A stretch of 64,000 nt of DNA from an uncultured Acidobacteriota bacterium (GTDB taxonomy: Bacteria; Acidobacteriota; Thermoanaerobaculia; Multivoradales; DATKCC01): the NCBI GenBank assembly GCA_963741925.1, contig CAVUJU010000003.1, positions 79,281 to 143,280 on the forward strand. The letters run 5' to 3'. Both the position numbers and the translations under genes were made by a program. Each line of letters begins with the position of its first letter. Position 1 is the first letter of the stretch. Below, piece by piece: positions 74 through 62,200 of the stretch. The notes under the pieces are model-generated. The model was not told the origin of the DNA, made no database searches, and worked only from the letters and a program-made list of their open reading frames with translations.

Positions 74-1321
74 ATGCCCCTCACGCTTCCGGCTTCGGCC
101 TCCCCGCGTGGCCGCCTCGTGCGCATCGTGGGCAGCGCCCTCTTCCTCGCCGCCCTGCTCTACGCCTTCTTCCTCGGCCTCGACCTCATGGGCGTGGCGT
201 TCAAGCTGTTCGGCAAGGACTTCGCGCGCATGCTCATCGAGCGCACGGCGAACCCCTTCGTGGGGCTCCTCGTGGGCATCGTCGCGACCAGCGTCATCCA
301 GAGCTCCTCGACCACCACGTCGATGACCGTCGGGCTGGTGGCCGCCGGAGCCCTGACCATCGACGGCGCCATCCCCATCATCATGGGCGCCAACATCGGC
401 ACCTCGGTGACCAACACCCTCGTCTCGCTGGCCCACGTGACCCGGCGCGAGGAGTTCCGGCGGGCCTTCGCCGGCGCCACGATCCACGACTTCTTCAACC
501 TGATGACGGTGGCGATCCTGTTCCCTCTGGAGCTCGCATTTCACGTGCTCCGGCACGCGGCGAACGGCTTCGAGGCGGTGCTCGAGGGCAGCGGCGGCAT
601 CGAGCTCTTCGACCCCGTGAAGGCGATGGTCCGGCCGGCCTCGCACGCGATCAGCCTGGCGCTCGGGTCGAGTGGCGCCCTGACCCTGGTGGTCGGCGTG
701 GCGTTCCTCTTCGGGGCGCTCAAGCTCCTGGTCGATCTCCTCAAGTCGCTGGTCTCTTCGCGGGCCGAGCGGATCCTCGACCGCACCCTCTTCCGCTCCG
801 CCCTGGCGGCCATCGGCGCCGGCACCCTGATCACCGTCATGGTGCAGTCGAGCTCCATCACCACGTCGGTCATGGTGCCCCTGGTGGGCGCCGGCGTCGT
901 CACCCTCGAGCAGATCTTCCCGTTCACCATCGGCGCCAACATCGGGACCACGGTCACCGCCCTCCTGGCGGCGCTCTCGACCGGCTCCCCGGCGGCGCTG
1001 AGCGTCGCCCTCTCCCACCTGCTGTTCAACCTGATGGGGGCGCTCATCATCTACCCCTTCCCGCCCATCCGGGCGATCCCGCTGGCGCTCGCCCGGGGCC
1101 TGGGCGCCCTCGGCAGCCGCTACCGCGCGGTTGCGATCGCCTACATCGCCCTGGTCTTCTTCGGCCTCCCGATCGGCCTGCTCTTCGCCTCCGGGGTGTT
1201 CCACCGCGACGCCCCCCCGCCGCCCGCCCCGGTCGCGGCGCCGGCGCCGCGGACCACGCCGCGATCTGAGCTACGCTCGTCGCCGTGGGAACAGCCGTCG
1301 CCCGAGCCGTGGTTGAGCTAG
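74..1321 (+). CDS. Na+/phosphate cotransporter family protein (NptA/YjbB-like)
   Basis: ORF 11..1321. It has two Na/Pi-cotransporter repeats with the QSSS-TTS signature (SVIQSSSTTTSMTVGLV and VMVQSSSITTSVMVPLVG) and is polytopic and hydrophobic. ATG at 74 is preferred over GTG at 11 because the residues before it are Pro-rich low complexity. Confidence 0.85.
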   Translation: MPLTLPASASPRGRLVRIVGSALFLAALLYAFFLGLDLMGVAFKLFGKDFARMLIERTANPFVGLLVGIVATSVIQSSSTTTSMTVGLVAAGALTIDGAIPIIMGANIGTSVTNTLVSLAHVTRREEFRRAFAGATIHDFFNLMTVAILFPLELAFHVLRHAANGFEAVLEGSGGIELFDPVKAMVRPASHAISLALGSSGALTLVVGVAFLFGALKLLVDLLKSLVSSRAERILDRTLFRSALAAIGAGTLITVMVQSSSITTSVMVPLVGAGVVTLEQIFPFTIGANIGTTVTALLAALSTGSPAALSVALSHLLFNLMGALIIYPFPPIRAIPLALARGLGALGSRYRAVAIAYIALVFFGLPIGLLFASGVFHRDAPPPPAPVAAPAPRTTPRSELRSSPWEQPSPEPWLS

Positions 1322-1592
1322 ATGTCTGATCAGGCCGGAATCGCGACGAACGAGCCGAGTTTTCCGGCGATCTGCAAGCGCGGGTGGGGGCGTCCCCTTC
1401 CCCCCCGTGGGGTCGGAAGGGGAACGAGGGGATGCGGGGGGCATGGGGTGGATCCAGCCGTCTGGAGTAGCCGATCGAGTGACCGCAGGCTTCACGTGCC
1501 GACGTGGGCGGGGGAGTGCCGATCGACCCAGCTCATGACCTCACAGATACCTCGTCGGTTTGAGGGGGAGCTTCGTCAGTTGGAGGTGCACC
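1322..1592 (+). repeat. Composite intergenic repeat, copy A (left flank + one G-rich 63-bp core unit at ~1386-1446 + ~150-nt right flank)
   Basis: Fills the whole spacer between the Na/Pi stop and the phoU-like ATG. It aligns block by block with 15470..15931. Shared blocks are AACGAGCCGAGT, GGGGGCGTCCCCTTCCCCCCCGTGGGG, TCTGGAGT, CGCAGGCT, CGACGTGGGCGGGG and CCTCGTCGGTTTGAGG. Confidence 0.75.
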
Positions 1593-9671: not shown

Positions 9672-10210
9672 TAGGAGCCCATGGCCATCGCGCCGCCGCC
9701 GCCCGGCCGGCGGTGGCGGGGGCCGAAGGCCCGGCGGACCTCCTTCAAGATCTCCCAGCGCTCGGCCTGGGCCGGGGTGAGGAGGGCGGTGAAGGCGGTG
9801 TCGAAGCCGTCCCGGGCGGCCTTCACCTGGTCGCGGACGCCCCGGATCTGGATCACCAGGGCGCCGACCTGGGCGGCGTCGGGGTCGGCGCCCTCGAGCA
9901 GGTCGCCGAGCTGCCGGTGGAGCGTCGTCTCCTGCTCGCGCAGGGGTCGGACCGTCGTCCGGAGCTCGTCGAGGAGGGCCTTGGTCTGGTCGACCTGGTC
10001 GGCGGTGAGGTCGAGGAAGTCGGCGATGGGGCCGAGGGGGAAGTGGTGCGCTTCGGCGGTCTGGCCGTGGGGGCCTCCGGCCCCGGGCGGCAGCGCCCGG
10101 AGCGGCAGCGCGCACAGGACGAGCAGGGCGGCGACGGTGCAGAGGGCGGTCCGGGTCCGGACTCGGGTCCGGCCGGGGGCGGTGGGTCGGGAGCGGATCA
10201 TCGAGGACAT
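9671..10210 (-). CDS. Periplasmic Spy/CpxP-family (LTXXQ motif) protein
   Basis: C-terminal part of ORF 9671..12469. Signal peptide (ALCTVAALLVLCALPLRA) and two LTXXQ motifs (LTADQ, LTPAQ). AAGGAG lies at the first ATG. The second ATG at 10201 is an equally plausible start. Confidence 0.65.
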   Translation of the reverse strand: MSSMIRSRPTAPGRTRVRTRTALCTVAALLVLCALPLRALPPGAGGPHGQTAEAHHFPLGPIADFLDLTADQVDQTKALLDELRTTVRPLREQETTLHRQLGDLLEGADPDAAQVGALVIQIRGVRDQVKAARDGFDTAFTALLTPAQAERWEILKEVRRAFGPRHRRPGGGGAMAMGS

Positions 10211-12437: not shown

Positions 12438-13562
<1,125 letters not shown>

Positions 13563-13686
13563 GACGCCGGGGCCCGTCCCTACCCGGCGGGTGGGGGCGG
13601 CGGTTCCGATCGGCGATATGATCGCAGCGGTCGCCGACGCCCCGGGCAACAGGCAGCGACCGAATCCCAACCGAGGAGGAGAGAGC

Positions 13687-14073
13687 ATGTACCCGAGCGA
13701 TTATCTCTACTCGCGCGACCACGAATGGGTCCGGGTCGAGGGCGACACCTGCGTCCTCGGGATCACGGAGCACGCCCAGGAGGAGCTCGGCGAGATCGTG
13801 TTCGTGGAGCTGCCCGAGGAGGGACAGAGCTTCAACGCCACCGACGAGGTGGGAACGATCGAGTCGGTCAAGGCCGTGGCGGAGGTCTATACGCCGGTCT
13901 CGGGCGACGTGACCGAGGTCAACTCCGCCCTCGAGGACGAGCCGGAGCTGGTCAACGACGATCCCCACGGCGACGGCTGGCTGGTCAAGCTGCGGATCGA
14001 CTCGAAGTCGCAGCTCGACGACCTGATGAACGCCGAGCAGTACGAGGAGTACCTCGCCAGTGGCGAAGAGTGA
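13687..14073 (+). CDS. gcvH: Glycine cleavage system H protein
   Basis: ATG 13687 after GGAGGAGAG. YSRDHEWVRVEGD, lipoyl-lysine motif IESVKAV, DPHGDGWL. Confidence 0.92.
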   Translation: MYPSDYLYSRDHEWVRVEGDTCVLGITEHAQEELGEIVFVELPEEGQSFNATDEVGTIESVKAVAEVYTPVSGDVTEVNSALEDEPELVNDDPHGDGWLVKLRIDSKSQLDDLMNAEQYEEYLASGEE

Positions 14074-15469
14074 TCCCGCCCACCGCTACCTCCCGGTCGG
14101 CGAGCTGGACCGCCGGGAGATGCTCGAGACGATCGGCGTGGGCTCGGTCGACGAGCTCTTCGCGAGCCTCGGCGACCTGCTCCTCGACGCGCCGGTCGAG
14201 CTGCCCGGCCCCCTCTCCGACGGCGAGCTCCGGGGGTACTTCCACCGCCTGGAGCGCATGAACCGGGTCCCGGGCCGGGACCTGGTGAGCTTCCTGGGCG
14301 CCGGCGCCTACCGCCACCAGACCCCGGCGGTGGTCGACCAGCTCCTGCTGCGCGGAGAGTTCCTGACCGTCTACACCCCGTACCAGCCGGAGATCAGCCA
14401 GGGGACGCTCCAGGCGATCTTCGAGTTCCAGACCTTCATCTCGCTCCTGACCGGCCTCGACGTGGCCAACGCCTCGCTCTACGAGGGTGCGAGCGCCTTC
14501 GCCGAGGCCGTGCTCATGGCCGACCGGATCCAGAGGAAGCGGCGCAAGGTCGTGGTCTCCCGGGGCGTCCACCCGCACTACCGTCAGACCCTCGCCTCCT
14601 ACGCCCGGAACCTCGAGCTCGAGATCGTCGAGGTGGGCTGGGACGCGAGCGGGGCGACCGACGCCGCGGCCCTCGAGGCGGCGGTCGACGACGCCACGAT
14701 CTGCGTCGCCGTCCAGAGCCCGAACTACTTCGGCGTCGTCGAGCCCTGGGGGCGGGCGAGCGAGATCGCGCACCGCGCGGGCGCCCTATCGGTGGCGGTG
14801 GTCACCGAGGCGCTGTCGCTGGCTCTCCTCGAGAGCCCCGGTGCCGGCGGCTGCGACATCGCGGCGGGCGAGGGCCAGTCCTTCGGCCTGCCCGTCTCCT
14901 TCGGCGGCCCCTACCTCGGCTTCCTGGCGGCGCGCGACGAGCACAAGCGCGCCATGCCGGGGCGGCTCGCCGGCCAGACCGTCGACTCGGCCGGCGAACG
15001 GGCCTTCGTGCTGACCCTCTCGACCCGCGAGCAGCACATCCGGCGCGAGAAGGCGACCTCGAACATCTGCACCAACCAGGCGCTCTGCGCCCTGGGCGCC
15101 ACCCTCTACCTCGCGCTCCACGGCAAGGTCGGCCTCCGGCGCCTGGCCGAGATCAACCTGCAGCGCGCGACGGCCCTCGCGCAGCGGATCGCCGGGCTCG
15201 GCGAGGGCTTCGGCCTGCCCTTCGGCGGGCCGACCTTCAACGAGCTCACCGTGCGCTCGGCCGAGCCGGTGGCGCCGCTGCTCGCCGAGCTCGAGGCCGA
15301 GGGCCTGCTCGCCGGCGTGCCGCTCGCGCCCGACTACCCGGAGCTCGAGGACTCGTTCCTGGTCGCCGTGACCGAGGACAACCCGCCGGAGGACCTCGAC
15401 CGCCTGGTCGGCGCCCTCGGCGCCCGCTCGGCAGCGCGCGAGCCGGCGTCGGCCCACGTCGGCCTCTAG
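14060..15469 (+). CDS. gcvPA: Glycine dehydrogenase (decarboxylating) subunit 1
   Basis: ORF 14060..15469 (GTG start overlapping the gcvH end). FLGAGAYRH, YTPYQPEISQGTLQAIFEFQT, TREQHIRREKATSNICTNQAL. Confidence 0.9.
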   Translation: MAKSDPAHRYLPVGELDRREMLETIGVGSVDELFASLGDLLLDAPVELPGPLSDGELRGYFHRLERMNRVPGRDLVSFLGAGAYRHQTPAVVDQLLLRGEFLTVYTPYQPEISQGTLQAIFEFQTFISLLTGLDVANASLYEGASAFAEAVLMADRIQRKRRKVVVSRGVHPHYRQTLASYARNLELEIVEVGWDASGATDAAALEAAVDDATICVAVQSPNYFGVVEPWGRASEIAHRAGALSVAVVTEALSLALLESPGAGGCDIAAGEGQSFGLPVSFGGPYLGFLAARDEHKRAMPGRLAGQTVDSAGERAFVLTLSTREQHIRREKATSNICTNQALCALGATLYLALHGKVGLRRLAEINLQRATALAQRIAGLGEGFGLPFGGPTFNELTVRSAEPVAPLLAELEAEGLLAGVPLAPDYPELEDSFLVAVTEDNPPEDLDRLVGALGARSAAREPASAHVGL

Positions 15470-15931
15470 GCGTTTCATGAGGGCGAAATCGTGAGCAACG
15501 AGCCGAGTCTTGGCAGACCCGCGAGAGCGGGAGGGGGCGTCCCCTTCCCCCCCCGTGGGGCGGGAAGGGGATCGAGGGGTTGCGGGGGGCACCCGGTCAA
15601 TCGTCCCCTTCCCCCCCCGTGGGGCGGGAAGGGGATCGAGGGGTTGCGGGGGGCACCCGGTCAATCGTCCCCTTCCCCCCCGTGGGGCGGGAAGGGGATC
15701 GAGGGGTTGCGGGGGGCACCCGGTCAATCGTCCCCTTCCCCCCCCGTGGGGCGGGAAGGGGATCGAGGGGTTGCGGGGGGCACCCGATGAATCCATCGCT
15801 CTGGAGTCGCCGTTCGGATGAGCGCAGGCTCGACCGGTCGACGTGGGCGGGGGGCCAGCAACTCACGAAGGCCCGGACGCTCGAGAGGCCTCGTCGGTTT
15901 GAGGCGAAGCTTTGTTAGCGGGGAGACCATC
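15470..15931 (+). repeat. Composite intergenic repeat, copy B (left flank + 4 tandem G-rich core units ~15533-15786, period 64/64/63 + ~150-nt right flank)
   Basis: The unit restarts (CGTCCCCTTCC) at 15538, 15602, 15666 and 15729. The flanks are homologous to 1322..1592. It occupies the whole gcvPA-gcvPB spacer. Confidence 0.85.
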
Positions 15932-17452: not shown

Positions 17453-17530
17453 GGGGGCGCCAGCCGATCCGAGCCGCCGGGCGGGACGGGAAGGGGATCG
17501 AGGGGATGCGGGGGAGATCCGATTGACCAC
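17453..17530 (+). repeat. Single, variant copy of the G-rich core repeat
   Basis: GGGGGCG...GGGAAGGGGATCGAGGGGATGCGGGGGAGATCCGATTGACC begins directly after the gcvPB stop. Its tail contains the TTG used as the putative start of the next gene. Confidence 0.7.
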
Positions 17531-20356: not shown

Positions 20357-21466
20357 TCACTCGGAGGGCTCGGCTCCCGGCGCTTCGCGCCGCTCGGCGA
20401 GCATGGCGTCGCCGTAAGAGTAGAAGCGATAGCCGCGCTCGACCGCCTCGCGGTAGGCGGCGAGCACCCGCTCGCGGCCGGCGAAGGCCGAGACCAGCAT
20501 GAGGAGCGTCGAGCGGGGGAGGTGGAAGTTGGTGAGCAGCACGTCGACCACCCGGAAGCGGTAGCCGGGGTAGATGAAGAGCTCCGTGCGGCCGGCGCCG
20601 GCCGGTACCGAGCCGTCGGGGCGGACGGCGCTCTCCAGGGTGCGCACCACGGTGGTGCCCACCGCCACCACCCGGCCGCCCCGGTCGCGGGCGGCGGCGA
20701 GGGCGCGGGCCGCCGCCGCCGCCACCTCCCAGCGTTCGGTATCCATCACGTGCTCGTGGACCAGCTCCGCGGTCACCGGCTTGAAGGTGCCGATCCCCAC
20801 GTGGAGCGTCACTTCGGTGCGCTCGACGCCCCGCTCCGCGAGCCGGGCGAGGAGCTCGGCCGAGAAGTGGAGACCGGCGGTGGGTGCGGCGATGGCGCCC
20901 GAGCGCCGCGCGAAGATGGTCTGGTAGCGCTCCCGGTCCGCGGGCCGGTCGGGCCGCTTGACGTAGGGCGGCAGCGGCACGTGGCCCAGGTGCTCGAGGT
21001 GAGGCTCGACCGGCTCGGAGAAGCGCACCAGGTGGCGGCCGTCGGCGAGCCCCGCGAGGACCTCGGCCTCGAGATCGTCGGCGAAGCGGATCCCGGCGCC
21101 GGGCCGGAGCTTCCTCCCGGGGCGCCCGAGGACCTCCCACTCGAGCGCTTCGCCGCCGGAGCGACCGGGCTCGCCGGCCCCGCCGGGGAGCCCTCCGCTC
21201 CGCGGCTCGACCAGCAGGAGCTCGATCCGGCCGCCGAGCTCGCCCCCTGCGAGCACGCGGCGGCCGTAGAGGCGGGCCGGGATCACCCGCGTGTCGTTGA
21301 CCACCAGGAGGTCGCCGGGGGCGAGCAGCTCGGGCAGGTCGGCCACGCGGCGGTGGCGCGCCTCGCCCCGGGCGTCGAGCACCAGCAGGCGGCTCTCCCC
21401 GCGCGGCGCCGGCTCCTGGGCGATCCGGTCCTCGGGAAGGTCGAAGTCGAAGTCCCGGGTCAGCAT
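20357..21466 (-). CDS. queA: tRNA preQ1(34) S-adenosylmethionine ribosyltransferase-isomerase
   Basis: ORF 20357..21481. [61 protein letters not shown]. The start is taken at the second Met because the first five codons lie inside the repeat unit. Confidence 0.9.
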
Positions 21467-21528
21467 GGGTGCCCCCCGCATCCCCTCGGTCCCCTTCCCG
21501 CCCCACGGGGGGGAAGGGGAGGCCTCCT
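21467..21528 (-). repeat. Single copy of the G-rich core repeat, minus orientation, abutting the queA ATG
   Basis: The reverse complement reads GGAGGCCTCCCCTTCCCCCCCGTGGGGCGGGAAGGGGACCGAGGGGATGCGGGGGGCACCC, followed by ATG. Confidence 0.8.
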
Positions 21529-30991: not shown

Positions 30992-31039
30992 GCGGGGCGT
31001 CCCTTCGGGAGAGGCCGCTCCCGAGCGCCGAGAGCCCCC

Positions 31040-32112
31040 GTGCACTTCCTGGATGAGTCGGTGATCCACGTCCAGGGCGGCCGCGGGGGCAACGGCTGCG
31101 TCGCCTTCCGGCGCGAGAAGTTCGTGCCCCGGGGCGGTCCCTCCGGGGGCGACGGCGGCTACGGCGGGGCGGTCTGGCTGGTCGGCCACGACTCCCTCAA
31201 CACCCTCTATCACCTCCGGTTCCGGCAGCTCTACGCGGCCGAGCGCGGGCGCCACGGCGAGGGCTCGAACCGCACCGGCCGGAGCGGCGACGACCTGGAG
31301 ATCCCGGTGCCGCTGGGCACCCAGGTCCACGACGCCGAAGGGGATGCGTTCCTGGGCGAGATCCTGGAGGAGGGGCAGCGCCTCCGGGTCGCCGCCGGCG
31401 GCATGGGCGGGCGGGGCAACAGCCACTTCAAGAGCTCCACCAACCAGGCGCCGCGCCGAGCCGAGCCGGGGGGGAGGGCGAGGAGCGCCATCTCCGCCTG
31501 GAGCTCAAGCTGCTCGCCGACGTGGGCCTGGTCGGCCTGCCCAACGCCGGCAAGTCGACGCTGATCAGCCGTCTCTCGGCCGCCCGGCCGAAGATCGCGG
31601 ACTACCCGTTCACGACCCTGGTGCCGCAGCTCGGAGTGGTGGATCGCGCCCCGGCCGAGCGGCCGTTCGTGATCGCCGACCTGCCCGGCCTGATCGCCGG
31701 CGCCGCGGAAGGGGCGGGCCTCGGGCACCAGTTCCTGCGCCACGTGGAGCGCTGCCGGGTGCTGGTGCACCTGGTCGATCTCTCGGCCGAGGGCGACGCC
31801 GGGACGGACCTGGCGACGGTCGAGGAGGAGCTCGCGGCCTTCGACCCGGAGCTGCTCGCGCGCGAGCGGTTCGTGGTCGGTTCGAAGCTCGACGCGGCGC
31901 GGGAGGAGCGCCGCCGCGACCTCGAGGCGGCGGCGCGGCGGCGGGGCCTTCCCTACCTCGAGGTGAGCGCGGTCGCGGGAGAGGGGCTGCCGAAGCTCGT
32001 GGGCCGCGTGGGCGCCGCGCTCGACGCCGCCCGCGCCGCCGAGGAGGACGCCCGGGCCGCCGCCGCCGCCGACGCCCCCTGGCACCACCCCGCCCCCCCG
32101 GAGACCGCATGA
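31040..32112 (+). CDS. obg: GTPase Obg/CgtA, with a frame break in a G7 run at 31468-31474
   Basis: ORF 31040..31564 ([26 protein letters not shown]...[17 protein letters not shown]) plus ORF 31522..32112 ([15 protein letters not shown]...[16 protein letters not shown]). With G8 instead of G7 the junction reads [25 protein letters not shown]. The length of 1073 nt is one base short. Confidence 0.85.
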
Positions 32113-32138
32113 GCCACCAGTCGAACGAAGGATCGGGT

Positions 32139-32453
32139 GGGGGCGTCCCCTTCCCCCCCGTGGGGAGGGAAGGGGATCGAGGGGATGCGGGGGGCATCCG
32201 ATCAACCGTCCCCTTCCCCCCCGTGGGGAGGGAAGGGGATCGAGGGGATGCGGGGGGCATCCGATCAACCGTCCCCTTCCCCCCCGTGGGGAGGGAAGGG
32301 GATCGAGGGGATGCGGGGGGCATCCGATCAACCGTCCCCTTCCCCCCCGTGGGGAGGGAAGGGGCTCGAGGGGATGCGGGGGGCATCCGATCGACCGTCC
32401 CCTTCCCCCCCGTGGGGAGGGAAGGGGATCGAGGGGATGCGGGGGGCATCCGA
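32139..32453 (+). repeat. Tandem array of 5 G-rich core units (exact 63-bp period)
   Basis: The unit restarts at 32144, 32207, 32270, 32333 and 32396. The unit is CGTCCCCTTCCCCCCCGTGGGGAGGGAAGGGGATCGAGGGGATGCGGGGGGCATCCGATCAAC. It lies between obg and nadD. Confidence 0.9.
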
Positions 32454-33074
32454 TTGGGTCTGTTCGGGGGTTCCTTCGACCCCATCCACCGCGGCCACGT
32501 GCGCCCCGTGCAGGAGGCCCGGCGGCGCTTCGGCCTCGAGCGGGTGATCTACCTGCCGACCGCCAGCCCGCCCCACAAGCAAGCCCCGGAGAGCGCGCCC
32601 CGGGCGCCGGCGGCGGCGCGCTACGCCATGGTCGAGATGGCTCTGCTCGAGGAGGAGGGCCTCTACGTTTCGGACTTCGAGCTGCGCCCCGACCGCCCGA
32701 GCTACACGGCGGAGACGCTGGAGCACTTCGCCCGCGAGGAGCCGGCGGCGGAGCTGGTCCTGGTGCTGGGCTCCGACGCCCTGGCCCAGCTCCCCACCTG
32801 GCGGCGGTGGCGCGACCTCCTGGAGCTCGCCCGCCTGGTGGTTCTGACCCGCCCGGGCAACGAGATCGCCGGGCTGCGCGCCGACCTGGCGCCGGAGCTC
32901 CGGGAGCGCCTCGCCCGGGGCGCCATCGACGTGATCGAGGACGTGCTGGTCGACATCTCCTCGACCGGCATCCGCGACCGCCTGGCGGAGGGGGAGGGGG
33001 ACGAGGCCTGGATGGAGGAGTGGATGCATCCCCTGGTGGTACACTACATCGAGAAATACGCCTTCTATAGATGA
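32454..33074 (+). CDS. nadD: Nicotinate-nucleotide adenylyltransferase
   Basis: In ORF 31344..33074. LGLFGGSFDPIHRGH, LPTASPPHK, ISSTGIRDRL. The start is uncertain: TTG 32454, GTG 32412, or ATG 32109 (which would translate the repeat array). Confidence 0.85.
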   Translation: MGLFGGSFDPIHRGHVRPVQEARRRFGLERVIYLPTASPPHKQAPESAPRAPAAARYAMVEMALLEEEGLYVSDFELRPDRPSYTAETLEHFAREEPAAELVLVLGSDALAQLPTWRRWRDLLELARLVVLTRPGNEIAGLRADLAPELRERLARGAIDVIEDVLVDISSTGIRDRLAEGEGDEAWMEEWMHPLVVHYIEKYAFYR

Positions 33075-34561: not shown

Positions 34562-36381
34562 GTGCGAGTCCTCTCCAGGCATACGCTCTCCGGCCTGTAA
34601 TCGACTCTGACTGCGTCGCCGCGAGGCGGGGTGGGGAGTAGGAGGAGATGAGCGATCAGTCCGTAGGCAACGAACCCGATTCGGCCGGTAGGACTCGGCG
34701 AGCCTACAAGCGAATGGCGAAGCCCGGACCCGGGAGAGCCGGGGTGCCCGTCGCGCTGAGGGGTAGCGTGCGAAAGCGTGGGCGGGGGGCCTACAGGTGG
34801 TTGGGGACGGAATGATCGCGACGGCCAGGCACCGTAAGCGGGGAGACCTGTCGTCCACGAGGAGAAGCAGGGCGGCAGGAGTCAGAGCTTCCATAGTAGC
34901 GAGGAAGCGCCGTAATGGGCGTGGAGCGAAGGGAAGCAGGAAGGTGGATGCGTGACGGCCAGGACGAGAGACGAGACCCCGGCGCGAGTGGGGCGAGCCC
35001 CTAACCCCGGCGGAGAGGTCCGGTCCCGATGGGGCTGGGCCGAACCCTCGGTCTGGACGGAGCGCATGCTGCGGGCCCTGGAGACCGGGGTCCGAGGAGG
35101 GACGTGGTTCAGCCTGATCGACAAGGTCTGCCGGAAGCAGACGCTTCTGCGCGCGTTCGAGAGAGTCGAGCGCAACGGGGGCGCCGCGGGGGTAGATCAC
35201 GTCACCGTGGATCACTACGGATCGCGCCTGGAGGAAGAGGTGGAGACGCTGTCGGCGTCCTTGCGGGACGGTAGCTACCGCCCGCAGGCGGTGCGTCGGC
35301 GGTGGATCCCCAAGCCGGGAAGCCGCGAGAAGCGGCCCCTGGGGATTCCGACGGTGCGCGATCGGGTGGTGCAGGGCGCGTTGCGCTTGGTCCTGGAGCC
35401 GATCTTCGAGCGGGATTTCGCCGAGCACAGCTACGGCTTCCGCCCGGGGCGCGGGTGCCGGGAAGCGCTGGAGCGGGTCGAGGAGCTCCTCGACTCGGGC
35501 CACACCTGGGTGGTGGACGCCGACCTGCGCCGGTACTTCGACACGATCGATCCGGAGCGCCTGCTGGCGCGGGTGCGCGAGAAGGTATCGGACGGGCGAG
35601 TGCTCGCCCTGGTCGAAGCCTTTCTCGAGCAAGAGGTACTGGACGGACTGGAGAGCTGGACGCCCGAGCGGGGAACCCCGCAAGGCGCGGTGATCAGCCC
35701 CCTACTGGCCAACATCTACCTCGACCCGCTGGACCATCTTCTGGCCCGCGAGGGCTTCGAGATGGTGCGCTACGCCGACGACTTCGTGATCCTGTGTCGG
35801 AGCGAGACCGAGGCCCGCCGGGCGCTTGCCCTGGTGGAGGCGTGGACGGCCCAGGAGGGCCTGAGCCTTCACCCGGACAAGACGGCGGTGGTGGATACCA
35901 CCGAGCGGGGTGGCTTCGACTTCCTGGGGTACCACTTCGAACGGGGCTACCAATGGCCCCGCGACAAGAGCCTCCGGAAGCTCAAGGACACCCTGCGCCG
36001 CAAGACCCGGCGCACCAACGGTCACAGCCTCGATCGGATCACCTGGGACGTCAGCCGGACGTTGCGTGGTTGGTACGAGTACTACCGCTACAGCCACCCG
36101 ACGACCTTCCGGCCGCTCGACCGGTGGATCCGCATGCGCCTGCGCAGCATCTTACGCAAGCGTCGCCGAGGCCGAGGCCGGGGCCGCGGTCGCGACCACC
36201 AGCGCTGGCCCAACGCCTTCTTCGCCGAGCATGGGCTGTTCAGCCTCGAAGCCGCCTATGCCTCGGACCCGCAGTCCTCTCGCAGGTGAACCACCAACCG
36301 GAGAGCCGGATGCGGGAGATCCGCACGTCCGGTTCGGAGGGAGGGGGGGCAGGGAATCCAACCTGCCCTCCCTACCCCTAT
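34562..36381 (+). mobile_element. Group II intron (full length, intergenic, RT/maturase ORF in domain IV)
   Basis: The 5-prime end is GTGCG at 34562. Domain V is GAGCCGGATGCGGGAGATCCGCACGTCCGGTTC (36303-36335). Domain VI is a hairpin with a bulged A at 36374, 7 nt before a 3-prime end ...CCCCTAT (36381). The RT ORF lies inside. Confidence 0.8.
34952..36289 (+). CDS. Group II intron reverse transcriptase/maturase (no endonuclease domain)
   Basis: ORF 34952..36289 (GTG start). RPLGIPTVRDRVVQ, TPQGAVISPLLANIYL, YADDFVIL (RT motif 5). The X/maturase region is LRGWYEYYRYS. There is no HNH motif after it. Confidence 0.9.
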   Translation: MTARTRDETPARVGRAPNPGGEVRSRWGWAEPSVWTERMLRALETGVRGGTWFSLIDKVCRKQTLLRAFERVERNGGAAGVDHVTVDHYGSRLEEEVETLSASLRDGSYRPQAVRRRWIPKPGSREKRPLGIPTVRDRVVQGALRLVLEPIFERDFAEHSYGFRPGRGCREALERVEELLDSGHTWVVDADLRRYFDTIDPERLLARVREKVSDGRVLALVEAFLEQEVLDGLESWTPERGTPQGAVISPLLANIYLDPLDHLLAREGFEMVRYADDFVILCRSETEARRALALVEAWTAQEGLSLHPDKTAVVDTTERGGFDFLGYHFERGYQWPRDKSLRKLKDTLRRKTRRTNGHSLDRITWDVSRTLRGWYEYYRYSHPTTFRPLDRWIRMRLRSILRKRRRGRGRGRGRDHQRWPNAFFAEHGLFSLEAAYASDPQSSRR

Positions 36382-36535
36382 CACCCGGGGTTGCGCCGCA
36401 CGCGGGGTTGCGCCCTACGCGGGGTTGCACCCCACCCGGGGTCGCGCGGCACGTGGGGTCGCGCGGCACGCAGGGTTGCCCCCATCCCGGGTTGCGCTGA
36501 ATGCAGGGTCACGCCGCACGCGGGGTCGCGCTCCG
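36382..36535. repeat. Degenerate ~17-bp tandem array (about 9 units, CACGCGGGGTTGCGCCS-like)
   Basis: The units read CACCCGGGGTTGCGCCG, CACGCGGGGTTGCGCCCT, ACGCGGGGTTGCACCCC, ACCCGGGGTCGCGCGG, CACGTGGGGTCGCGCGG, CACGCAGGGTTGCCCCC, ATCCCGGGTTGCGCTGA, ATGCAGGGTCACGCCG and CACGCGGGGTCGCGCTC. The array fills the gap between the intron 3-prime end and the smc stop. Confidence 0.7.
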
Positions 36536-41435: not shown

Positions 41436-41496
41436 GGTCAGCGGGTTCCGGGGCCGTCATGTTAAAGAACGAAGGCGCTCCAGTCCAGGGGAGGGA

Positions 41497-41568
41497 GGAG
41501 GCGTCTCCTTCCCCCCGTGGGGTGGGCAGGGGATCGAAAGGATGCGGGGGGCGTCCGGTTTGACAACG
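41497..41568 (+). repeat. Single copy of the G-rich core repeat, 19 nt upstream of pyrR
   Basis: GGAGGCGTCTCCTTCCCCCCGTGGGGTGGGCAGGGGATCGAAAGGATGCGGGGGGCGTCCGGTTTGACAACG. Confidence 0.8.
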
Positions 41569-46755: not shown

Positions 46756-47577
46756 ATGGCGAAGCTCGAGAGCGCGGCCAGCGCCACCATGATCATCCCG
46801 CGCGGGACCGAGATCGACGTCGACGCCCACGGCCAGCTCTCGATCCGTACCCCGGGCAACCTGGTGCTCCAGAACTCGGGCAGCTTCGGCACCCTGGAGT
46901 CGGTCCACGGCTCGATCCGCATCGAGCGCGGCGTCGAGATCGAGGCGGCCACCGTGCGCTGCGCCGACGCCTGCTACGTCCAGGGCACCCTCACCGCCTG
47001 GAAGGTCGTCGCCCGCACCCTCCACCTCGAGGACACGGCCGAGGCCCACATCGTGCTCCAGGAGACCGAGGCCCTGGACGTGGGCCGGGGCGCCCGCCTG
47101 GTGGGCAACTTCCACTCCGAGGACGAGCTCTTCCTCCTCTTCTCGCGCTTCGCCGACCAGGTGCGGAGCCTCCCGATCTACTCGAGCCGGCGGCGGGCGC
47201 CGCAGCCGGCCGCGATGGGCGGCGACGCCGAGATGGTGCGGGCGCTGGCCGAAGGCGCGACGCCAGGGGGTGCAGAAGAGGAGGGCGCACCGCCCGCCGG
47301 ACCCGCCGGGACGGAGGGACTGCCCGAGGCGCTCTCCTTCGCCCACGCCCTCCTCGAGCGGGAGGTCGGCAACGCCGAGCTCGGACGGACCTCCCAGCGC
47401 GTTCTCCGAGAGCTCGTCAAGCTCCTCGACGAGGGCGACGTCGAGACTCTGCGCCACGTCCACCGCACCCTCTTCGGACGCATCTCCGATCCCAGCGACA
47501 ACGTGCGCAAGGCCGAGTGGCTGGTCCAGGACCACTTCGCCAGCGAAGCCAGCGAGCCCTCCGAACGCCCCTCCTGA
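46756..47577 (+). CDS. Hypothetical protein with bactofilin-like beta-helical N-terminal half
   Basis: ORF 46756..47577. It shows a repetitive G-x-hydrophobic pattern (GQLSIRTPGNLVLQNSGSFGTLESVHGSIRIERGVEIEAATVRCADACYVQGTLTA...). The C-terminal half is acidic and helical. The family call is by pattern only. Confidence 0.45.
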   Translation: MAKLESAASATMIIPRGTEIDVDAHGQLSIRTPGNLVLQNSGSFGTLESVHGSIRIERGVEIEAATVRCADACYVQGTLTAWKVVARTLHLEDTAEAHIVLQETEALDVGRGARLVGNFHSEDELFLLFSRFADQVRSLPIYSSRRRAPQPAAMGGDAEMVRALAEGATPGGAEEEGAPPAGPAGTEGLPEALSFAHALLEREVGNAELGRTSQRVLRELVKLLDEGDVETLRHVHRTLFGRISDPSDNVRKAEWLVQDHFASEASEPSERPS

Positions 47578-47640
47578 GCCCGCCGCCGGAAACGAAACCA
47601 GGGCGGCCCCGCGCAGGGTCGCCCTGGAGTCCTGCACCGT

Positions 47641-50230: not shown

Positions 50231-53200
50231 GTGAAGGCCGGCAACCTGTCACGGGAGGAGTTGAGTCGCCTCGTCCGGCGGCTGGGCCAGGCCAGGGCGA
50301 AGGGGCGGGTCGAGACCGAGGCACCTGCGTCACGCGGCGAGGCCCGGCGGGGCGGGTCCCTGTCCTCGGCTCAGAAGCGGCTCTGGTTCCTCGACCGGCT
50401 CACTCCCGGCACGGCGGCGTACAACGTGCCTCTGGCGCTCCGGCTCCGGGGGAGGCTCGACGTCCGGGCCCTCGCCATCGGCCTGCGCGAGATCGTGCGC
50501 CGTCACGAGCCCCTCCGGAGCCGCGTCTCGGTGGTGGCGGGAGAGCTGGTGCCGGCGGCCCGGGGCGACGGCGCCGCGGCGCTGCCGGCGGTCGACCTCT
50601 CCGCCCTCCCGCGGGCGCGAGCCGAGGCGGAGGCCAGGGCGCTCGCCGCGGCGGGGGCCCGGCGGCCGTTCGACCTGGCCCGCGGTCCGCTCCTGCGCCG
50701 GGTCTCGATCCGGATCGCCCCGGAGGACCACCTCCTCCTCGTCGTGTTCCACCACATCGTGGTCGACGGCTGGTCGGTCGGGGTCTTCGTCGCAGAGCTC
50801 GCTTCGCTCTACACCTCCGCCTCTCGGGGGATGCGGCCGGCGCTGCCCGCGCTTCAGGCCTCCTACGCCGACTTCGTCGCCTGGGAGTCCGAGCGACTCG
50901 CCGGCCCGGGCCTGGCGCAGGATCTCGGCTACTGGCGCCGGCGGCTGGCCGGAGCGCCTCCCGTCTTGGTGCTGCCGGCCGACCGCCCGGCGCCGCCCGG
51001 GCGGCGAGACCGGCCCGGTGCCCACCTCTTCTTCGCCTGGCCTCCGGAGCTCGTGCGCTCTCTGTGCGCCCTCTCGCGCGAGCGCGGCACGACGCTCTTC
51101 GCCGTTCTGCTCGCGGCCTTCCACGCCCTGCTCGCCCGCCACTCCGGAAGCGACTCGCCGGTGGTGGGCACGCCGGTCGCCAATCGGCCGCGCCGTGAGC
51201 TCGAGGCCCTGATCGGATTGTTCGTGAACCACCTGCCTCTGCGCGGCGACCTCTCGGGCGATCCCTCGTTCTCCGAGCTCGTCGGGCGCGCCGCCGAGGG
51301 CTTTCTCGAGGCCCAGGCCCACGCGGTGCCGTACCAGCGGCTGGTCGAGGAGCTCCGGCCGCGGCGAGACCTCGACCATCCTCCGATCTTCCAGGTCCTG
51401 TTCGGGCTCCAGGACACCCCGCTCGGCGGCGGCGGCCTGCCCGGCCTCGAGACCGGGCTGATGGTGGTCGAGAGCGGGAGCGCCAAGCTCGATCTGGGCC
51501 TCGTTCTGGTCGAGCGGGAGGGTGGGCTGGAGGGGGACCTCGAGTACGACCGGGACCTCTTCGACCCGACCACGGCCCGCCGGTTGGCCGGCCACCTGCG
51601 GAACCTCCTCGCGGCGGCGGTGGCCGCGCCGGAGACGCCGGTGTCCCGCCTGCCCCTGCTCGCGGCCGGGGAGCGCCGGCAGCTTCTCGGCGAGTGGAAC
51701 GACACGGCGGCGGGGGATCCGGGCCGGCTCGCGGTCGAGGAGCTGTTCGCGGCGCAGGCGGCGAGGACGCCCGAGGCGGTGGCGGTGACGGCGGGAGGCT
51801 CGGCGCTCAGCTACCGGGAGCTCGAGCGCCGGGCGGCGGCGCTCGCCGGGTGCCTGCGGGCCGCCGGGGTCGGCCCGGAGACGCGGGTGGGCCTGTGCGT
51901 CGAGCGCTCGCTCGCCCTGCCGGTGGCGATGCTCGCGATCCTCGAGGCGGGCGGCGCTTACGTGCCGCTGGACCCGGGCTATCCCGCCGAGCGCCTGGGC
52001 TTCATGCTGGAGGACGCGGGCGTTTCGCTGCTGGTGGGGCCGGAGGAGCTGCTGGCGGCGCTGCCGGCCGGGGACCTGCCGGCGGTGCGGCTCGCCGCGG
52101 CCGGCCGCCGTCCGGCAGGCGGGGGGGCGGCGGCCGTGGCGCGGGCCGCTCGCGCGCCGGGGGGCGGCGAGCGCCTCGCCTACGTCATGTACACGTCGGG
52201 CTCGACGGGCCGGCCGAACGGGGTGGCGGTGGCGCACCGGGGGATCGTGCGCCTGGTGCGCGAGACCGGCTACGCGGAGCTCGGCCCCGGGGAGACCTTC
52301 CTCCAGCTCGCGCCGATCTCGTTCGACGCGGCGACGCTGGAGGTGTGGGGGCCGCTGCTGAACGGCGGGCGCCTGGCGCTGTGTCCGCCGGGGGTGCCGT
52401 CGGTCGCCGAGCTCGGGCGGACGCTGGCGGCGGAGCGGGTGACGGCGCTCCGGTTGACGGCGGGTCGGTTCCACCAGGTGGTCGAGGACGACCTGCCGGC
52501 GCTGGCCGGGCTGCGCCAGATCCTGGCCGGCGGCGACGTGCTGGCGCCGGGGGCGGTCGAGCGGGTGCTCCGGGAGGTGCCGGGGTGCCGGGTGACGAAC
52601 GGCTACGGGCCGACGGAGAACACGACCTTCACCACGACCCACGGCATGGCCGCGGAGGATGGGCGGGGGCGTTTCTTTCCCCCCGCGAGGGTTGGAAGGG
52701 GATCGAGAGGACGGGGGGCGGTCCGATCGATCCCCATCGGGCGGCCGATCGCGAACACCCGGGTGCACGTGCTCGACCGCGGCCTCGAGCCGGCGCCGAT
52801 CGGCGTGGCGGGGGAGCTGTGGGCGGCGGGGGCGGGGCTCGCGCGGGGGTACTGGGGGCGGCCGCGGCTCACCGCCGAGCGCTTCGCGCCGGACCCGTGG
52901 GGGGAGCGGCCGGGCGTGCGGCGGTACCGGACCGGCGACCGGGTCCGCCGGGTGGGGAGCGGCGAGCTCGAGTTCCTGGGACGGATCGATCAGCAGGTCA
53001 AGATCCGGGGCTTCCGGATCGAGCCCGGGGAGGTCGAGGCGAGCCTGGCCGGGGAGGCGCGGGTGGCGGCGGCGGTGGTGGTGGCGCGCAAGGACGCCCC
53101 GGGCGGGGGCCGGCTGGACGCCTACGTGGTGGCCGCCGCGGGCGCGGCCGCCGAGGGCCTCGGCGCAAAGCTCCGGGCGGAGCTGGCGCGCCGGCTTCCC

Positions 53201-59200: not shown

Positions 59201-62200
59201 TTCACCACCTGTCACGGCATGGCTGCGGCGGCGGAGGATGGGTGGGGGCGTCCCGCCGCGGTCCGGTCGATCCCCATCGGGCGGCCGATCGCGAACACCC
59301 GGGTGCACGTGCTCGACCGCGGCCTCGAGCCGGTGCCGATCGGCGTGGCGGGGGAGCTGTGGGCGGCGGGGGCGGGGCTCGCGCGAGGGTACTGGGGGCG
59401 GCCGCGGCTCACCGCCGAGCGCTTCGCGCCGGACCCGTGGGGGGAGCGGCCGGGCGTGCGGCGGTACCGGACCGGCGACCGGGTCCGCCGGGCGGGGAGC
59501 GGCGAGCTCGAGTTCCTGGGGCGGATCGACCAGCAGGTCAAGATCCGGGGCTTCCGGATCGAGCCCGGGGAGGTCGAGGCGAGCCTGGCCGGGGAGGCGC
59601 GGGTGGCGGCGGCGGTGGTGGTGGCGCGCAAGGACGCCCCGGGCGGGGGCCGGCTGGACGCCTACGTGGTGGCCGCCGCGGGCGCGGCCGCCGAGGGCCT
59701 CGGCGCAAAGCTCCGGGCGGAGCTGGCGCGCCGGCTTCCCGACTACCTGGTGCCGGCGACGGTGACGGTGCTCGCCGAGCTGCCCCTGACCCCGAACGGC
59801 AAGGTGGACCGGCGGGCGCTGCCGGAGCCGGAGGCGCGGGCGAGCGCCGCGGGCGCTCCGGCCTTCGAGGCGCCGCGGACGCCCACCGAGGAGACCCTGG
59901 CGGGGCTCTGGCGCGAGCTCCTCGGCGTCGAGCACATCGGCCGCCACGACGACTTCTTCGCCCTCGGCGGGCACTCGCTGCTCGCCACCCGCCTGGTCTC
60001 TCGCATCCGGTCCGCCCTCGACGTCGACCTGCCGCTCCGGAGCCTGTTCGAAGCGCCGACCGTGGCGGACCTGGCAGGGAGCGTCGAGGCCCTGAGGGGC
60101 GACCCGGCGGCGGTGCCGGTTCCGCCCATCCGGCGGCGAGCGCGGACCGGGCCCCTGCCGCTCTCCTACGCCCAGGAGCGTCTCTGGTTCCTGGACCGCT
60201 TCGAGCCGGGGAGCTCCGCCTACAACATCCCGGCCGCCTTCCGGCTCGACGGGCGCCTCGACCTGCCGGGCCTGGCCGCCGCGCTCTCCGGGGTGATTCG
60301 CCGGCACGAGGCCCTGCGCACGACCTTCGAGAGCGGCGAGGACGGCCCGCGGCAGGTGGTCGGCCCTCCCGTCTCCCTCGCCCCTCCCCTGGTCGACCTG
60401 CAGGCGGTGCTCGGGCCGGCGGCCCGGGCCGACGGCGTCGATCCGCGGCTCGAGGCCCTGGCGCGGGAGGAGGCGGAGCGGCCGTTCGACCTCGGGCGCG
60501 GACCGCTGGTGCGCGCCACCGTCCTGCGCCTCGCGCCGCGGCGCCACGTGGTCTTCCTGACCTTCCACCACATCGTCGCCGACGGTTGGTCGATCGGGAT
60601 CTTCGTCCGCGAGCTGGCGGCGCTCTACCGGACGGCCTCCGAGGGCCGGCCGTCGCCCCTGCCCGAGCCGCCGGTGCAGTACGGCGACTTCGCCTCGTGG
60701 CAGCGCGAATGGCTCGCCGGCGGCGAGCTCGAGCGCCAGCTCGGCTACTGGCGCGAGCGCCTCGCCGGCGCGCCGGAGGTTCTCGAGCTGCCTACCGACC
60801 GGCCGCGGCCGTCGGTGGCGACGCCCCAGGGGCGCCGCCGGGCCACGGCCGTCGACCGCCACGTGACCGACGGGCTGCGGCGCCTCGCCCGCGAGGAGGG
60901 GACCACGCTCTTCGCGGTCCTGCTGGCGGCCTTCGACGTCCTCCTGCACCGCTACAGCGGCCAGGACGACCTGGTGGTGGGCTCGCCCATCGCCAACCGC
61001 AACCGGGAGGAGATCGAGGGGCTGGTCGGCGTCTTCGTCAACACCCTGGCCCTGCGGGTCGACCTCGCCGGCGCTCCGGGATTCCGGGAGCTGATCGGGC
61101 GGGTGCGGAAGGCGACCGCCGACGCCTACAGCCACCAGGACCTGCCGTTCGAGAAGCTGGTGGCGGAGCTGCGGCCGGCCCGCAACCGCAGCCACTCGCC
61201 GATCTTCCAGGTGATGCTCTCGCTCCACGACCTGGGCCTCGTGCGCACCGAGCTGCCGGGCCTCGCCCTCGCCCCCCTCGAGGTGCGGGGCGCGACCGCG
61301 AAGTTCGACCTGACCCTCGCCCTCACAGAGACGCCGGACGGGCTGCGGGGCGTTCTCGGCTACCGCTCCGCCCTGTTCGACGCCACCACCGTGGAGCGCA
61401 TGGGGCGTCAGCTCGACACCCTGCTGCGCGGAGCGCTCGAGGATCCGGACCGCCCGCTCCGCGCCCTGCCGCTGCTCGCTCCCGGCGAGGCCCATCAGAT
61501 CCTCGTCGCCTTCAACGAGACGCCGGCCCTGCCGCCGGCCACGGGCCCCGACGATCTCCTGATCCATCGCCTCGTGGCGGCGCGGGCGGCCGCTTCGCCC
61601 GATGCCGTGGCCCTGGTGCTGGACGGCGACCACCTGAGCTACGGCGCCCTGGCGGCGCGCGCGAGCCGCCTCGCCCGGCGCCTGCGCGCCGCGGGAGCCG
61701 GCCCCGGCGAGCGGGTCGCGGTCTGTCTCGAGCGCTCGTTCGACCAGATCGTCGCGGTGCTCGGCGCCCTCGAGGCCGGCGCGGCCTACCTGCCCCTCGA
61801 CCTGGCCTTCCCGGCCGATCGCCTCGCCTTCATGGTGGCGGACGCCCGCCCGGTGGCCCTGGTCACCCGGAGCGAGCACCTGGAGCTCTTCTCCGGCCTC
61901 GGAGCGGCCGAGCGGCCGGCGCCGATCCTGGTCGAAGCCGGGCAGGTGGAGGTCGCCGGCGCCGGCCCCTCGCCGTCGCCGGACGACCCCGCGTACGTCA
62001 TCTACACCTCCGGCTCGACCGGGAGGCCGAAAGGGGTGCTGGTCGCCCACCGCTCGCTCGCCGAGCGGCTGGCGGCGATCCGGGAGCTCTTCGCGTTCGG
62101 CCCCGGCGACCGGCAGCTCCAGTTCGCGTCGCTCTCCTTCGACCTGTCGTGCGACGAGGTCTTCCTCACCCTGACCTCCGGCGCGTCGCTGGTGCTCGAG

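Follow-up and report, generated by a model that had tools for sequence, protein, structure and literature searches.

The 64,000-nucleotide stretch of Acidobacteriota DNA analysed here (contig CAVUJU010000003.1, positions 79,281 to 143,280; hereafter the window) carries a G-rich, double-hairpin repeat unit of 63-64 nt. We show that this unit does not stand alone but forms the core module of a larger, composite element, probably a non-autonomous selfish interspersed repeat that is specific to a Thermoanaerobaculia clade and resembles transposable elements of the miniature inverted-repeat type (MITEs) and repetitive extragenic palindromes (REPs). The unit itself, first noticed in a first-pass annotation made from the sequence alone, is real. 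Tandem-repeat analysis of the window finds a 63-nt period repeated 4.9 times at 32144-32458 with 98% matches, and a second array of four units with a period of 64/63 at 15538-15792 (+). A 38-nt core pattern allowed up to three mismatches matches the window 10 times, versus 0 matches in 100 shuffles. An nhmmer profile and, independently, a covariance model run with its filters off agree on seven window loci holding 15 units in total; the first-pass annotation had listed eight copies, the last of which (59240-59273) is an internally deleted remnant only. Because raw open reading frames (ORFs) are uninformative at the window's G+C content of 73.6%, genes were called with a self-trained codon model, and the neighbours were compared with Pfam.

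The composite nature of the element is apparent from its flanks. The first two window loci share roughly 70 nt on the 5' side of their core(s) and roughly 125 nt on the 3' side, and full-length copies of about 145-460 bp consist of a 5' arm, at least one G/C-rich double-hairpin core and a 3' arm. Flank alignment separates two long forms. The S-type (about 145-175 nt) begins with YTAR and (A)ACGAAA...GGGGAGGGGG, continues through the core to TGCTTCGAGTAGGCC...CGCAGCGCCGTTTCAT, and closes with a tail hairpin and a second YTAR. The W-type, which is the form of the window and its nearest relatives, begins with CTAG, followed by ATGTCTGATCAGG...GACGAACGAGCCGAG...GGGTGGGGG and then the core(s), and ends with TCCAGCGGTCTGGAGT...GACGTGGGCGGGGGA...CCTCGyCGGTTTGAGGCGGAGCTTCG and a closing CTAG. 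The core is accompanied by the 3' arm in 55 of 62 matches, the exceptions being mostly internally deleted copies that keep both ends, and the arms are near-identical between loci 110 kb apart. Since the arms nearly always travel with the core, they are ruled out as separate repeat families. A structured RNA comprising the whole composite element is also ruled out, as it folds no better than shuffled sequence (z = +0.8).

The boundaries of the element bear the signature of insertion. The 5' junctions are mostly CTAG, also CTAA or TTAG, and more than 20 copies have CTAG or CTAA next to their 3' end; YTAR or TA stands at both ends of more than 20 copies, in either orientation and in unrelated flanks. 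The fourth base is often unequal at the two ends, which leaves TA(R) in a C-TA-R context as the repeated part, and neighbouring elements, whether tandem or head-to-head, have one CTAG in common. When the element between gcvPA and gcvPB is removed together with one TAG, a compact junction of stop, Shine-Dalgarno (SD) sequence and start is left (...CTC TAG CGGGGAGACCATC ATG); the same operation at 1318..1579 leaves ...GAGC TAG TTGGAGGTGCACC ATG, the 3' TA there being mutated to CA. An empty site of this kind is found in locus L173 of genome MFD01721, which is 89-90% identical to the window at 12.3-20.2 kb and has 12 nt between gcvPA and gcvPB (TGA GCCGGGGAGGACGAGA ATG) versus 471 in the window. 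The obg/nadD site is empty in locus L031, where the two genes overlap as GTGA, and in more distant relatives the gcvPA-gcvPB junctions are short or overlapping and carry no units. Copies flanked by YTAR with a duplicated TA, together with an empty orthologous site, point to insertion. As a separate observation, the same junction in a distant acidobacterial relative (L094, around 9840-10000) carries an unrelated C/G-rich palindromic repeat (CTTCTCCCCCGCCGCGCGGGGGAGAAGG...); hairpin repeats may land at this junction recurrently.

Target preference also accounts for a conspicuous association with gene ends. On the 5' side, 11 of 31 boundary YTARs double as the stop of a gene that reads toward the element; on the 3' side the count is 6 of 27 (17/58 in all, 29%). 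TAG and TAA stops make up 26% of the YTAR sites outside coding interiors (13% for plain TA), and the supply of YTAR targets thus explains the abutment. A functional link to the termination of translation was rejected, the coincidence being similar at both ends and at the YTAR expectation.

The family is restricted to one lineage and apparently undescribed. In a species-representative collection, the pattern GGAAGGGGANCGAGGGGNTGCGGGGG occurs in at least 92 genome stretches, all from Acidobacteriota/Thermoanaerobaculia metagenome-assembled genomes (MAGs) and belonging to at least 12 genomes. Our census sample comprises 92 8-kb blocks (about 700 kb) picked by the exact core pattern and carrying our own gene calls; in it, nhmmer finds 160 units at 122 loci, namely 103 single units and 19 arrays in which 2-5 units follow one another head-to-tail; pairs in head-to-head arrangement are exceptional. 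Units are absent from 80 loci of more distant relatives, and viral contigs gave no match, on which ground a phage vector was rejected. The translated unit appears in just six predicted proteins out of 5.8 billion, all from this lineage and evidently over-extensions or spurious calls; four unit-containing ORFs lie on one 3.08-Mb contig. At gathering score Rfam has no match to the unit, its sole match in the window being a group II intron domain elsewhere, and permissive scans of two loci returned generic hairpin matches only, below threshold; a known RNA family is thereby ruled out. We found no description of repeats in Thermoanaerobaculia in the literature. Several of the source MAGs are possibly nanopore long-read assemblies, in which case homopolymer lengths within units may mislead; the 63- and 64-nt periods differ solely in the length of one C-run.

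One head-to-head case belongs to a hotspot of at least eight units (L086 6189-7251, MAG MFD01721, contig_14876), where a module of 5' arm plus core recurs every 130 nt or so and two head-to-head elements on a single CTAG form a perfect 30-nt palindrome (CCTGATCAGACATCTAGATGTCTGATCAGG).

With respect to neighbouring genes, the family does not behave as its copies in the window do. The first-pass annotation had described strict co-orientation, and every window copy is indeed sense to its downstream or host gene; this is, however, a property of the window and not of the family. Among 116 intergenic loci, drawn from at least 12 genomes, 52 have a downstream gene co-oriented with the G strand and 56 an opposed one (46 and 56 with the window left out); for the upstream gene the counts are 75 co-oriented and 33 opposed. 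By gene pair, 38 loci are sense to both members of a co-directional pair, 33 lie between convergent genes (upstream same, downstream opposite), 20 are antisense to both members of a co-directional pair and 10 lie between divergent genes (upstream opposite, downstream same). The ratio of convergent to divergent locations is thus 33:10, versus a background of 93:88. Locus L031, which is syntenic with the window at 30.5-34.4 kb, provides a direct counter-example, with a full element antisense between rpmA and obg. Information on orientation comes from the co-directional pairs alone, and among these the sense ratio is heterogeneous between genomes (p=0.023): sense to antisense is 5:0 in the window, 9:2 in MFD01721 and 14:4 in SMAG_U6236, and 4:5, 1:4 and 2:3 in three other genomes. 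Neutral REP scatter had been considered less likely, a judgement that these data overturn: copies are distributed in the manner of REPs and MITEs, after gene ends and in convergent regions, at sites that are not conserved.

Unit orientation matches the local GC skew in 55 of 115 cases and the majority coding strand in 57 of 115. Strand-specific insertion of the IS200/IS605 type was rejected on this lack of relation to skew or coding strand, although the test is a weak one, skew being apparently set by coding-strand composition. The sign of the skew equals the majority coding strand in just 27 of the 92 8-kb blocks; the coding strand is C-rich in these genomes, and skew tracks transcription-strand composition more than replication, which weakens any skew-based inference of the replication strand.

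The one positional feature that favours the sense strand across the family is the abutment of start codons. Sense copies alone come within 5 nt of a start codon (9/52, versus 0/33 for antisense copies; p=0.011). The abutment is not a gene-calling artefact, because conserved N-terminal motifs begin right at the unit end in nadD, queA and a methyltransferase gene (L011/L089). Within the window, four copies had been placed next to start codons; those before the small membrane protein gene, queA and nadD abut them, and the start of pyrR lies 27-50 nt away. At the abutting starts inspected, the start codon follows the hairpin-2 loop's G-run at a distance of 4-8 nt. A role for this G-run as a typical SD sequence was rejected: GGAG/GAGG is the type seen in native SD regions, which are not enriched in G-runs, as judged from only 49 genes with constrained starts. 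We read the pattern as a tolerance filter, in which a G-rich sense copy sometimes replaces the ribosome-binding region and a C-rich antisense copy cannot. Sense copies may occasionally have been exapted, but the pattern is no evidence that the family exists to regulate genes. The proposal of selection or function at the RNA level fares unevenly: starts are adjoined only by sense copies and a sense excess exists that depends on the genome, whereas orientation toward the downstream gene is random and orthologous sites are empty.

The double hairpin itself, a prediction of the first-pass annotation, is well supported. The G strand is predicted to form two hairpins at -39.7 kcal/mol (-40.1 for the C strand), hairpin 1 having 13 bp, mostly G-C, with a 1-nt bulge and a loop of 3-4 nt, and the two-hairpin fold is predicted for 101 of 103 distinct cores. 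For covariation, 137 copies (114 distinct) were aligned to a covariance model; this alignment leans toward the model itself and replaced a MAFFT alignment whose register shifts between subfamilies. In this alignment 93.2% of cells are paired (99% in hairpin 1), and six pairs show compensatory double changes, a count reached by 0 of 500 shuffles and lost when the pairing is slid; the majority of columns just do not vary. Hairpin 1 has a variable loop, which accepts 30-nt insertions. Owing to G-U pairs, the G strand is the more stable of the two strands in 94 of 103 cores, which is largely an effect of base composition. No U-tract or T-run follows the hairpins on either strand, the next bases being ATCGAGG or CGATCAAC, so that the unit was rejected as an intrinsic terminator. 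The G strand is free of stop codons in all frames. A core subfamily carries a roughly 32-nt insertion (GGCGCCGCCGGGCAGGGACCCGGCGGCTTC...) exactly in the hairpin-1 loop, itself able to form a hairpin (L058 2188-2284, L061 6111-6205, L070 757-853 and 7690-7783, L091 3208-3301).

The case for a G-quadruplex (G4) is weaker. The canonical motif is present, with five G3-6 tracts (GGGG A GGG AA GGGG ATCGA GGGG ATGC GGGGGG) and a G4Hunter score of 2.22 over 36 nt. In G4-aware ViennaRNA folding of complete units, however, the double hairpin at -39.7 kcal/mol is predicted to be some 16 kcal/mol more stable than the best G4 conformer at -23.7, and G4 would be favoured just where a copy has no C-rich half, as at 17481. 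A toggle between hairpin and G4, as had been suggested, is accordingly modelled as thermodynamically disfavoured in complete units.

Comparison of copies points to local amplification followed by decay. Cores of one array are 96% identical, those at different loci of a genome 94% and those of different genomes 89% (up to 98%), a gradient that fits local amplification. At the small-membrane-protein locus the window has 0.7 units versus 1.6 in L173, both adjoining the same TTG; at queA the window keeps the core, and L173 keeps the 5' arm with the core deleted between two G-runs (GGGAGGGGG, then CACCC ATG); the gcvPA/gcvPB copy is specific to the window in this comparison. Elsewhere, one gene end carries decayed forms that differ between the window and L053, which are 85-87% identical. 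At 47583-47640, after a gene ending at 47577, the window has an arm-like, hairpin-forming sequence with no core (GGAAACGAAACCAGGGCGG...CCTGGAGTCC), and the L053 ortholog has the 3' half of a core; the window sequence may be a fully core-deleted element. Next to or inside the 3' part of queA, L173 also carries about 930 bp (12796-13730) more than the window, comprising an HTH_31/HTH_3 gene and a 163-residue ORF, and its called queA product has 146 residues.

Table 1. Copies of the repeat in the window, with their parts and gene context (NRPS, nonribosomal peptide synthetase)
Feature	Position	Strand	Context and details
Full-length composite element, one core	1318..1579	+	Between Na/Pi-cotransporter gene and PhoU-domain gene (ATG 1593); Na/Pi-cotransporter stop is the boundary TAG 1319-1321
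5' arm of the 1318..1579 element	1318-1390		CTAG, then ATGTCTGATCAGG...GGGTGGGGG; W5 arm match 1318-1366
Core of the 1318..1579 element	1391-1453	+	
3' arm of the 1318..1579 element	1453-1579		Ends ...GGAGCTTCGTCAG, a degenerate CTAG
Full-length composite element, four tandem cores (15538-15792)	15466..15921	+	Between gcvPA (stop TAG 15467-15469) and gcvPB (ATG 15932); TAG on both flanks; orthologous L173 junction without element
5'-truncated or rearranged core, 3' two-thirds only	17465..17527	+	Clear match from 17481; final bases overlap TTG start (17523) of small membrane protein gene, 3' of gcvPB
Single core without recognisable arms	21460..21522	-	Ends directly at queA ATG 21466 (minus strand)
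5' arm remnant and five tandem cores	32123..32458	+	Remnant GAACGAAGG..GGGTGGGGG 32123-32143; cores 32144-32458, period 63; between obg stop (TGA 32110-32112) and nadD start (TTG 32454); without 3' arm
TTAA, short 5' arm and diverged core	41462..41563	+	Arm AGAACGAAGG...GGGAGGAGG; core 41502-41563; divergent region, exosortase-like gene (-) and pyrR (+, start 41587 or 41611)
Diverged core, in frame and sense, in NRPS adenylation domain	52661..52733	+	Profile match 52670-52731; between NGYGPTENTTFTT and IPIGRPIANT; translated as Gly/Arg/Pro-rich loop
Internally deleted remnant	59240..59273	+	Same position of paralogous NRPS module; ends only, GGGTGGGGGCGTCCC...GGTCCGGTCGATC

Two of the window copies interrupt recognisable gene orders (Table 1): the glycine cleavage genes run gcvT-gcvH-gcvPA, element, gcvPB, as checked with Pfam, and the five-unit array follows rplU-rpmA-obg and precedes nadD-rsfS. 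The obg gene (31040-32112) is split over two frames near 31480, through a genuine frameshift or a homopolymer sequencing error: ORF 31040-31564 contains the N-terminal GTP1_OBG domain, ORF 31522-32112 the GTPase domain. The 48-nt spacer between rpmA and obg (30995-31035) contains GCGGGGCGTCCCTTCGGGAG, which resembles the 5' junction of the core, GGGGGCGTCCCCTTCCC. The NRPS ORF of some 4400 codons (50231-63499) contains an internal module duplication of about 6.57 kb, with identical 27-mer repeats at 52039 and 58612, and both duplicated modules have a repeat or its remnant at one equivalent position of the adenylation domain. Further along, a group II intron has its reverse transcriptase/maturase ORF at 34952-36289 and its Rfam domain V/VI match at 36301-36381, and is directly followed by about nine tandem 17-mers (CACGCGGGGTTGCGCCG, 36382-36531).

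A selfish, MITE/REP-like element of this kind would work as follows. An enzyme supplied in trans would insert the element at YTAR sites. TA is rare at 73% G+C, and about a quarter of the usable YTAR sites are TAG or TAA stops; because of this, many copies would land exactly on stop codons, which they would rebuild, the boundary TAG keeping the upstream stop intact. After insertion, the core would multiply locally by slippage or unequal recombination to give head-to-tail arrays of 2-5, and copies would later decay by deletion, often between G-runs, to solo or partial cores. Sense copies that come to adjoin a start codon would present their G-rich end to the gene, and the in-frame NRPS copy may have been tolerated since the sense strand is free of stops. 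Secondary effects on the host, through mRNA structure, the spacing of cistrons and possibly ribosome binding, can be imagined. A role at the RNA level looks like a selective filter or an occasional exaptation.

Several observations weigh against this account. When the two ends are compared in four full-length copies, no terminal inverted repeat reaches 9 nt and only internal hairpins are seen, and about 0.7 Mb of sequence (92 sampled 8-kb loci) contains no autonomous partner or transposase gene flanked by the arms; both findings make a classical MITE of the DDE type unlikely. S and W subfamilies have arms with different termini that nevertheless both end at CTAG, an unusual arrangement if a transposase is to recognise them. 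Conservation is higher in the core than at the ends of the element, the reverse of a typical MITE, and this could reflect selection on the core itself. The arm-less arrays before nadD and queA have no visible TA flank, and the comparison of a filled with an empty site at high identity is a single one (L173). Co-directional pairs favour the sense orientation 38:20 (p=0.025; 33:20 without the window), and the element is retained at two of the three loci that can be compared between the window and L173; because of this bias and this retention, some copies are not neutral. A bolder reading is an undescribed form of mobility, in which cutting and joining at CTAG/YTAR sites would move a repeat that has no terminal inverted repeats, the double-hairpin core and not the ends would be recognised or selected, and sense cores would have been exapted as portable intercistronic modules. 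We regard it as a long shot. Were it true, an exapted module would rebuild the upstream stop, uncouple the cistrons and offer a G-run just upstream of the next start, and the length of an array could serve as a tunable control of downstream translation, akin to that of a variable number of tandem repeats (VNTR).

The same data can be asked to support a function for the host. The units could be cis-acting 5'-leader RNAs, selected in the sense orientation just upstream of starts as a hairpin/G4 toggle or a switch of translation or stability. All window copies are sense and three adjoin starts, only sense copies come within 5 nt of a start, with the hairpin-2 G-run close upstream in those inspected, the G strand folds better than its complement, and units or remnants before the small membrane protein gene and queA are kept in two genomes. 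However, the 46:56 ratio outside the window, the 33 convergent and 20 antisense co-directional copies, the empty orthologous sites in L173 and L031 and the in-frame NRPS copy all weigh against this; the downstream genes are functionally unrelated (nadD, queA, gcvPB, a phoU-like gene, a methyltransferase), G4 is predicted to lie well below the hairpins in stability, native SD sequences are of another type and the folding edge of the G strand is largely compositional. This makes a dedicated leader improbable. It is equally doubtful that the host maintains the units for a function like that of REPs or bacterial interspersed mosaic elements (BIMEs), as stabilisers of mRNA 3' ends, attenuators or terminators, or spacers for differential expression within operons. 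Such a function would suit the co-oriented upstream genes (75:33), the enrichment in convergent regions, the very stable hairpin 1 and the copies between operon cistrons (gcvPA/gcvPB, obg/nadD), a distribution shared with REPs, for which RNA-level roles have been proposed (PMC3733652). It sits poorly with hairpins that lack a U-tract and occur in both orientations, with orthologous sites at which presence is not conserved, and with a symmetric stop-codon association explained by YTAR availability; moreover, a terminator within gcvPA-gcvPB or obg-nadD would be harmful.

Transcription-independent placement, as a DNA-level structural or protein-binding element (a G4, an i-motif, or a nucleoid-protein or gyrase site), would explain the near-random orientation relative to genes, a core conserved beyond its arms (89% between genomes, up to 98%) and the G4Hunter value of 2.2 on the G-rich half with C-tracts opposite. 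We consider it very unlikely, as copy number and presence vary among close relatives, the concentration at YTAR with a duplicated TA points to insertion and not to placement for chromosome structure, and a G4 would have to beat a hairpin modelled as 16 kcal/mol more stable. Least credible of all is a small protein encoded by the element. A 48-codon ORF on the C-rich strand, opening at an ATG and closing at the boundary TAG, does cover the consensus S-type element precisely; nevertheless, over 18 copies the frames of the core differ, the ends scatter or the ORF runs on, the arm indels are not multiples of three, and the database proteins containing the unit are over-extended or spurious calls. 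This candidate was rejected.

A selfish repeat of this type has consequences for the study of these bacteria. Thermoanaerobaculia MAGs contain dozens of these repeats, at which short-read assemblies break, and which make gene callers over-extend N-termini through arrays (P0006) and call spurious ORFs. They can also mimic leaders or regulatory RNAs. More generally, target preference can fake a functional association: an element that seeks YTAR/TA at 73% G+C hits stops about a quarter of the time, which resembles coupling to gene ends. The copies inserted into once overlapping or tightly coupled cistrons (obg/nadD, gcvPA/gcvPB) form a natural series that could be used to probe the tolerance of operons to insertion. 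The lack of terminal inverted repeats and a core more conserved than the ends are features that could raise interest in the family.

Among known repeats, the closest parallels are found in the CGTC-tagged REP superfamily (Di Nocera, De Gregorio, Rocco 2013, PMC3733652), which includes Rickettsia RPE-4/-6 and Neisseria dRS3; Rickettsia palindromic elements (RPEs) are mentioned in the same paper. These REPs have an unpaired CGTC at one end, a stem of 8-9 bp with A/T in the first two pairs, a 4-5 nt loop and a CCA-like tail of 3 nt, and occur mostly as head-to-head dimers, clusters being rare; REPs lie mainly 3' of genes, between unidirectional and convergent ORFs, and roles at the RNA level have been proposed (PMC3733652). 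Our family shares with them multicopy, short, GC-rich stem-loops with a core that starts with CGTC and loops of about 4 nt, a location after genes and between unidirectional or convergent ORFs (upstream co-oriented 75:33; convergent to divergent 33:10 versus 93:88), occasional intragenic copies and no adjacent dedicated transposase. CGTC opens nearly every core; in the predicted structure it is partly paired, T3 as U-A (111 of 114 copies) and C4 as C-G (113 of 114). Unlike in CGTC-tagged REPs, however, the stem has 13 bp and a bulge, ATCGAGG and a second hairpin follow without a CCA tail, units form head-to-tail arrays, the core lies within longer YTAR-bounded arms and the host belongs to the Acidobacteriota (Thermoanaerobaculia). 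REPs of the GTAG type and the REPINs associated with RAYT transposases differ further, as our units lack a conserved GTAG and are direct repeats instead of inverted doublets; no gene flanked by inverted units or arms was present in the roughly 0.7 Mb sampled.

Tandem organisation between cistrons recalls the mycobacterial interspersed repetitive units (MIRUs), a VNTR class said to consist of 40-100 bp units in variable head-to-tail arrays. MIRUs are reportedly co-oriented with the operon in a consistent way, and their short ORFs overlap the neighbouring stop and start codons. Our arrays likewise lie between operon cistrons (gcvPA/gcvPB, obg/nadD), reach the flanking stop and start codons, and, as with the 63 nt of the obg-nadD array, can have a period divisible by three. 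Unlike MIRUs, they show mixed orientation (38:20), no conserved coupling ORFs and periods of 63, 64 and 69-70 nt, and MIRUs are not known to have the strong double hairpin and YTAR-bounded arms of this family. RPEs reportedly sit in frame within protein-coding genes. The copy in the NRPS adenylation domain resembles them as an in-frame palindromic repeat translated as an extra loop; unlike RPEs, it is a single intragenic case with a paralogous remnant, and sequence, host and architecture are unrelated.

The ERIC/IRU elements of enterobacteria and the Correia/NEMIS elements of Neisseria are bacterial MITEs flanked by a duplicated TA. Our element differs from them in having no terminal inverted repeats, subfamily-specific termini, a tandem-amplifying internal module that is better conserved than the ends and no cognate insertion sequence in the 92 sampled 8-kb loci. 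In common with them it is non-coding and 100-450 bp long, carries TA direct repeats at its ends, is polymorphic for presence and absence, and occurs in either orientation in transcribed intergenic regions, including operon junctions. With YTAR/TA at both ends and an empty site in L173, its target sites are those of a MITE.

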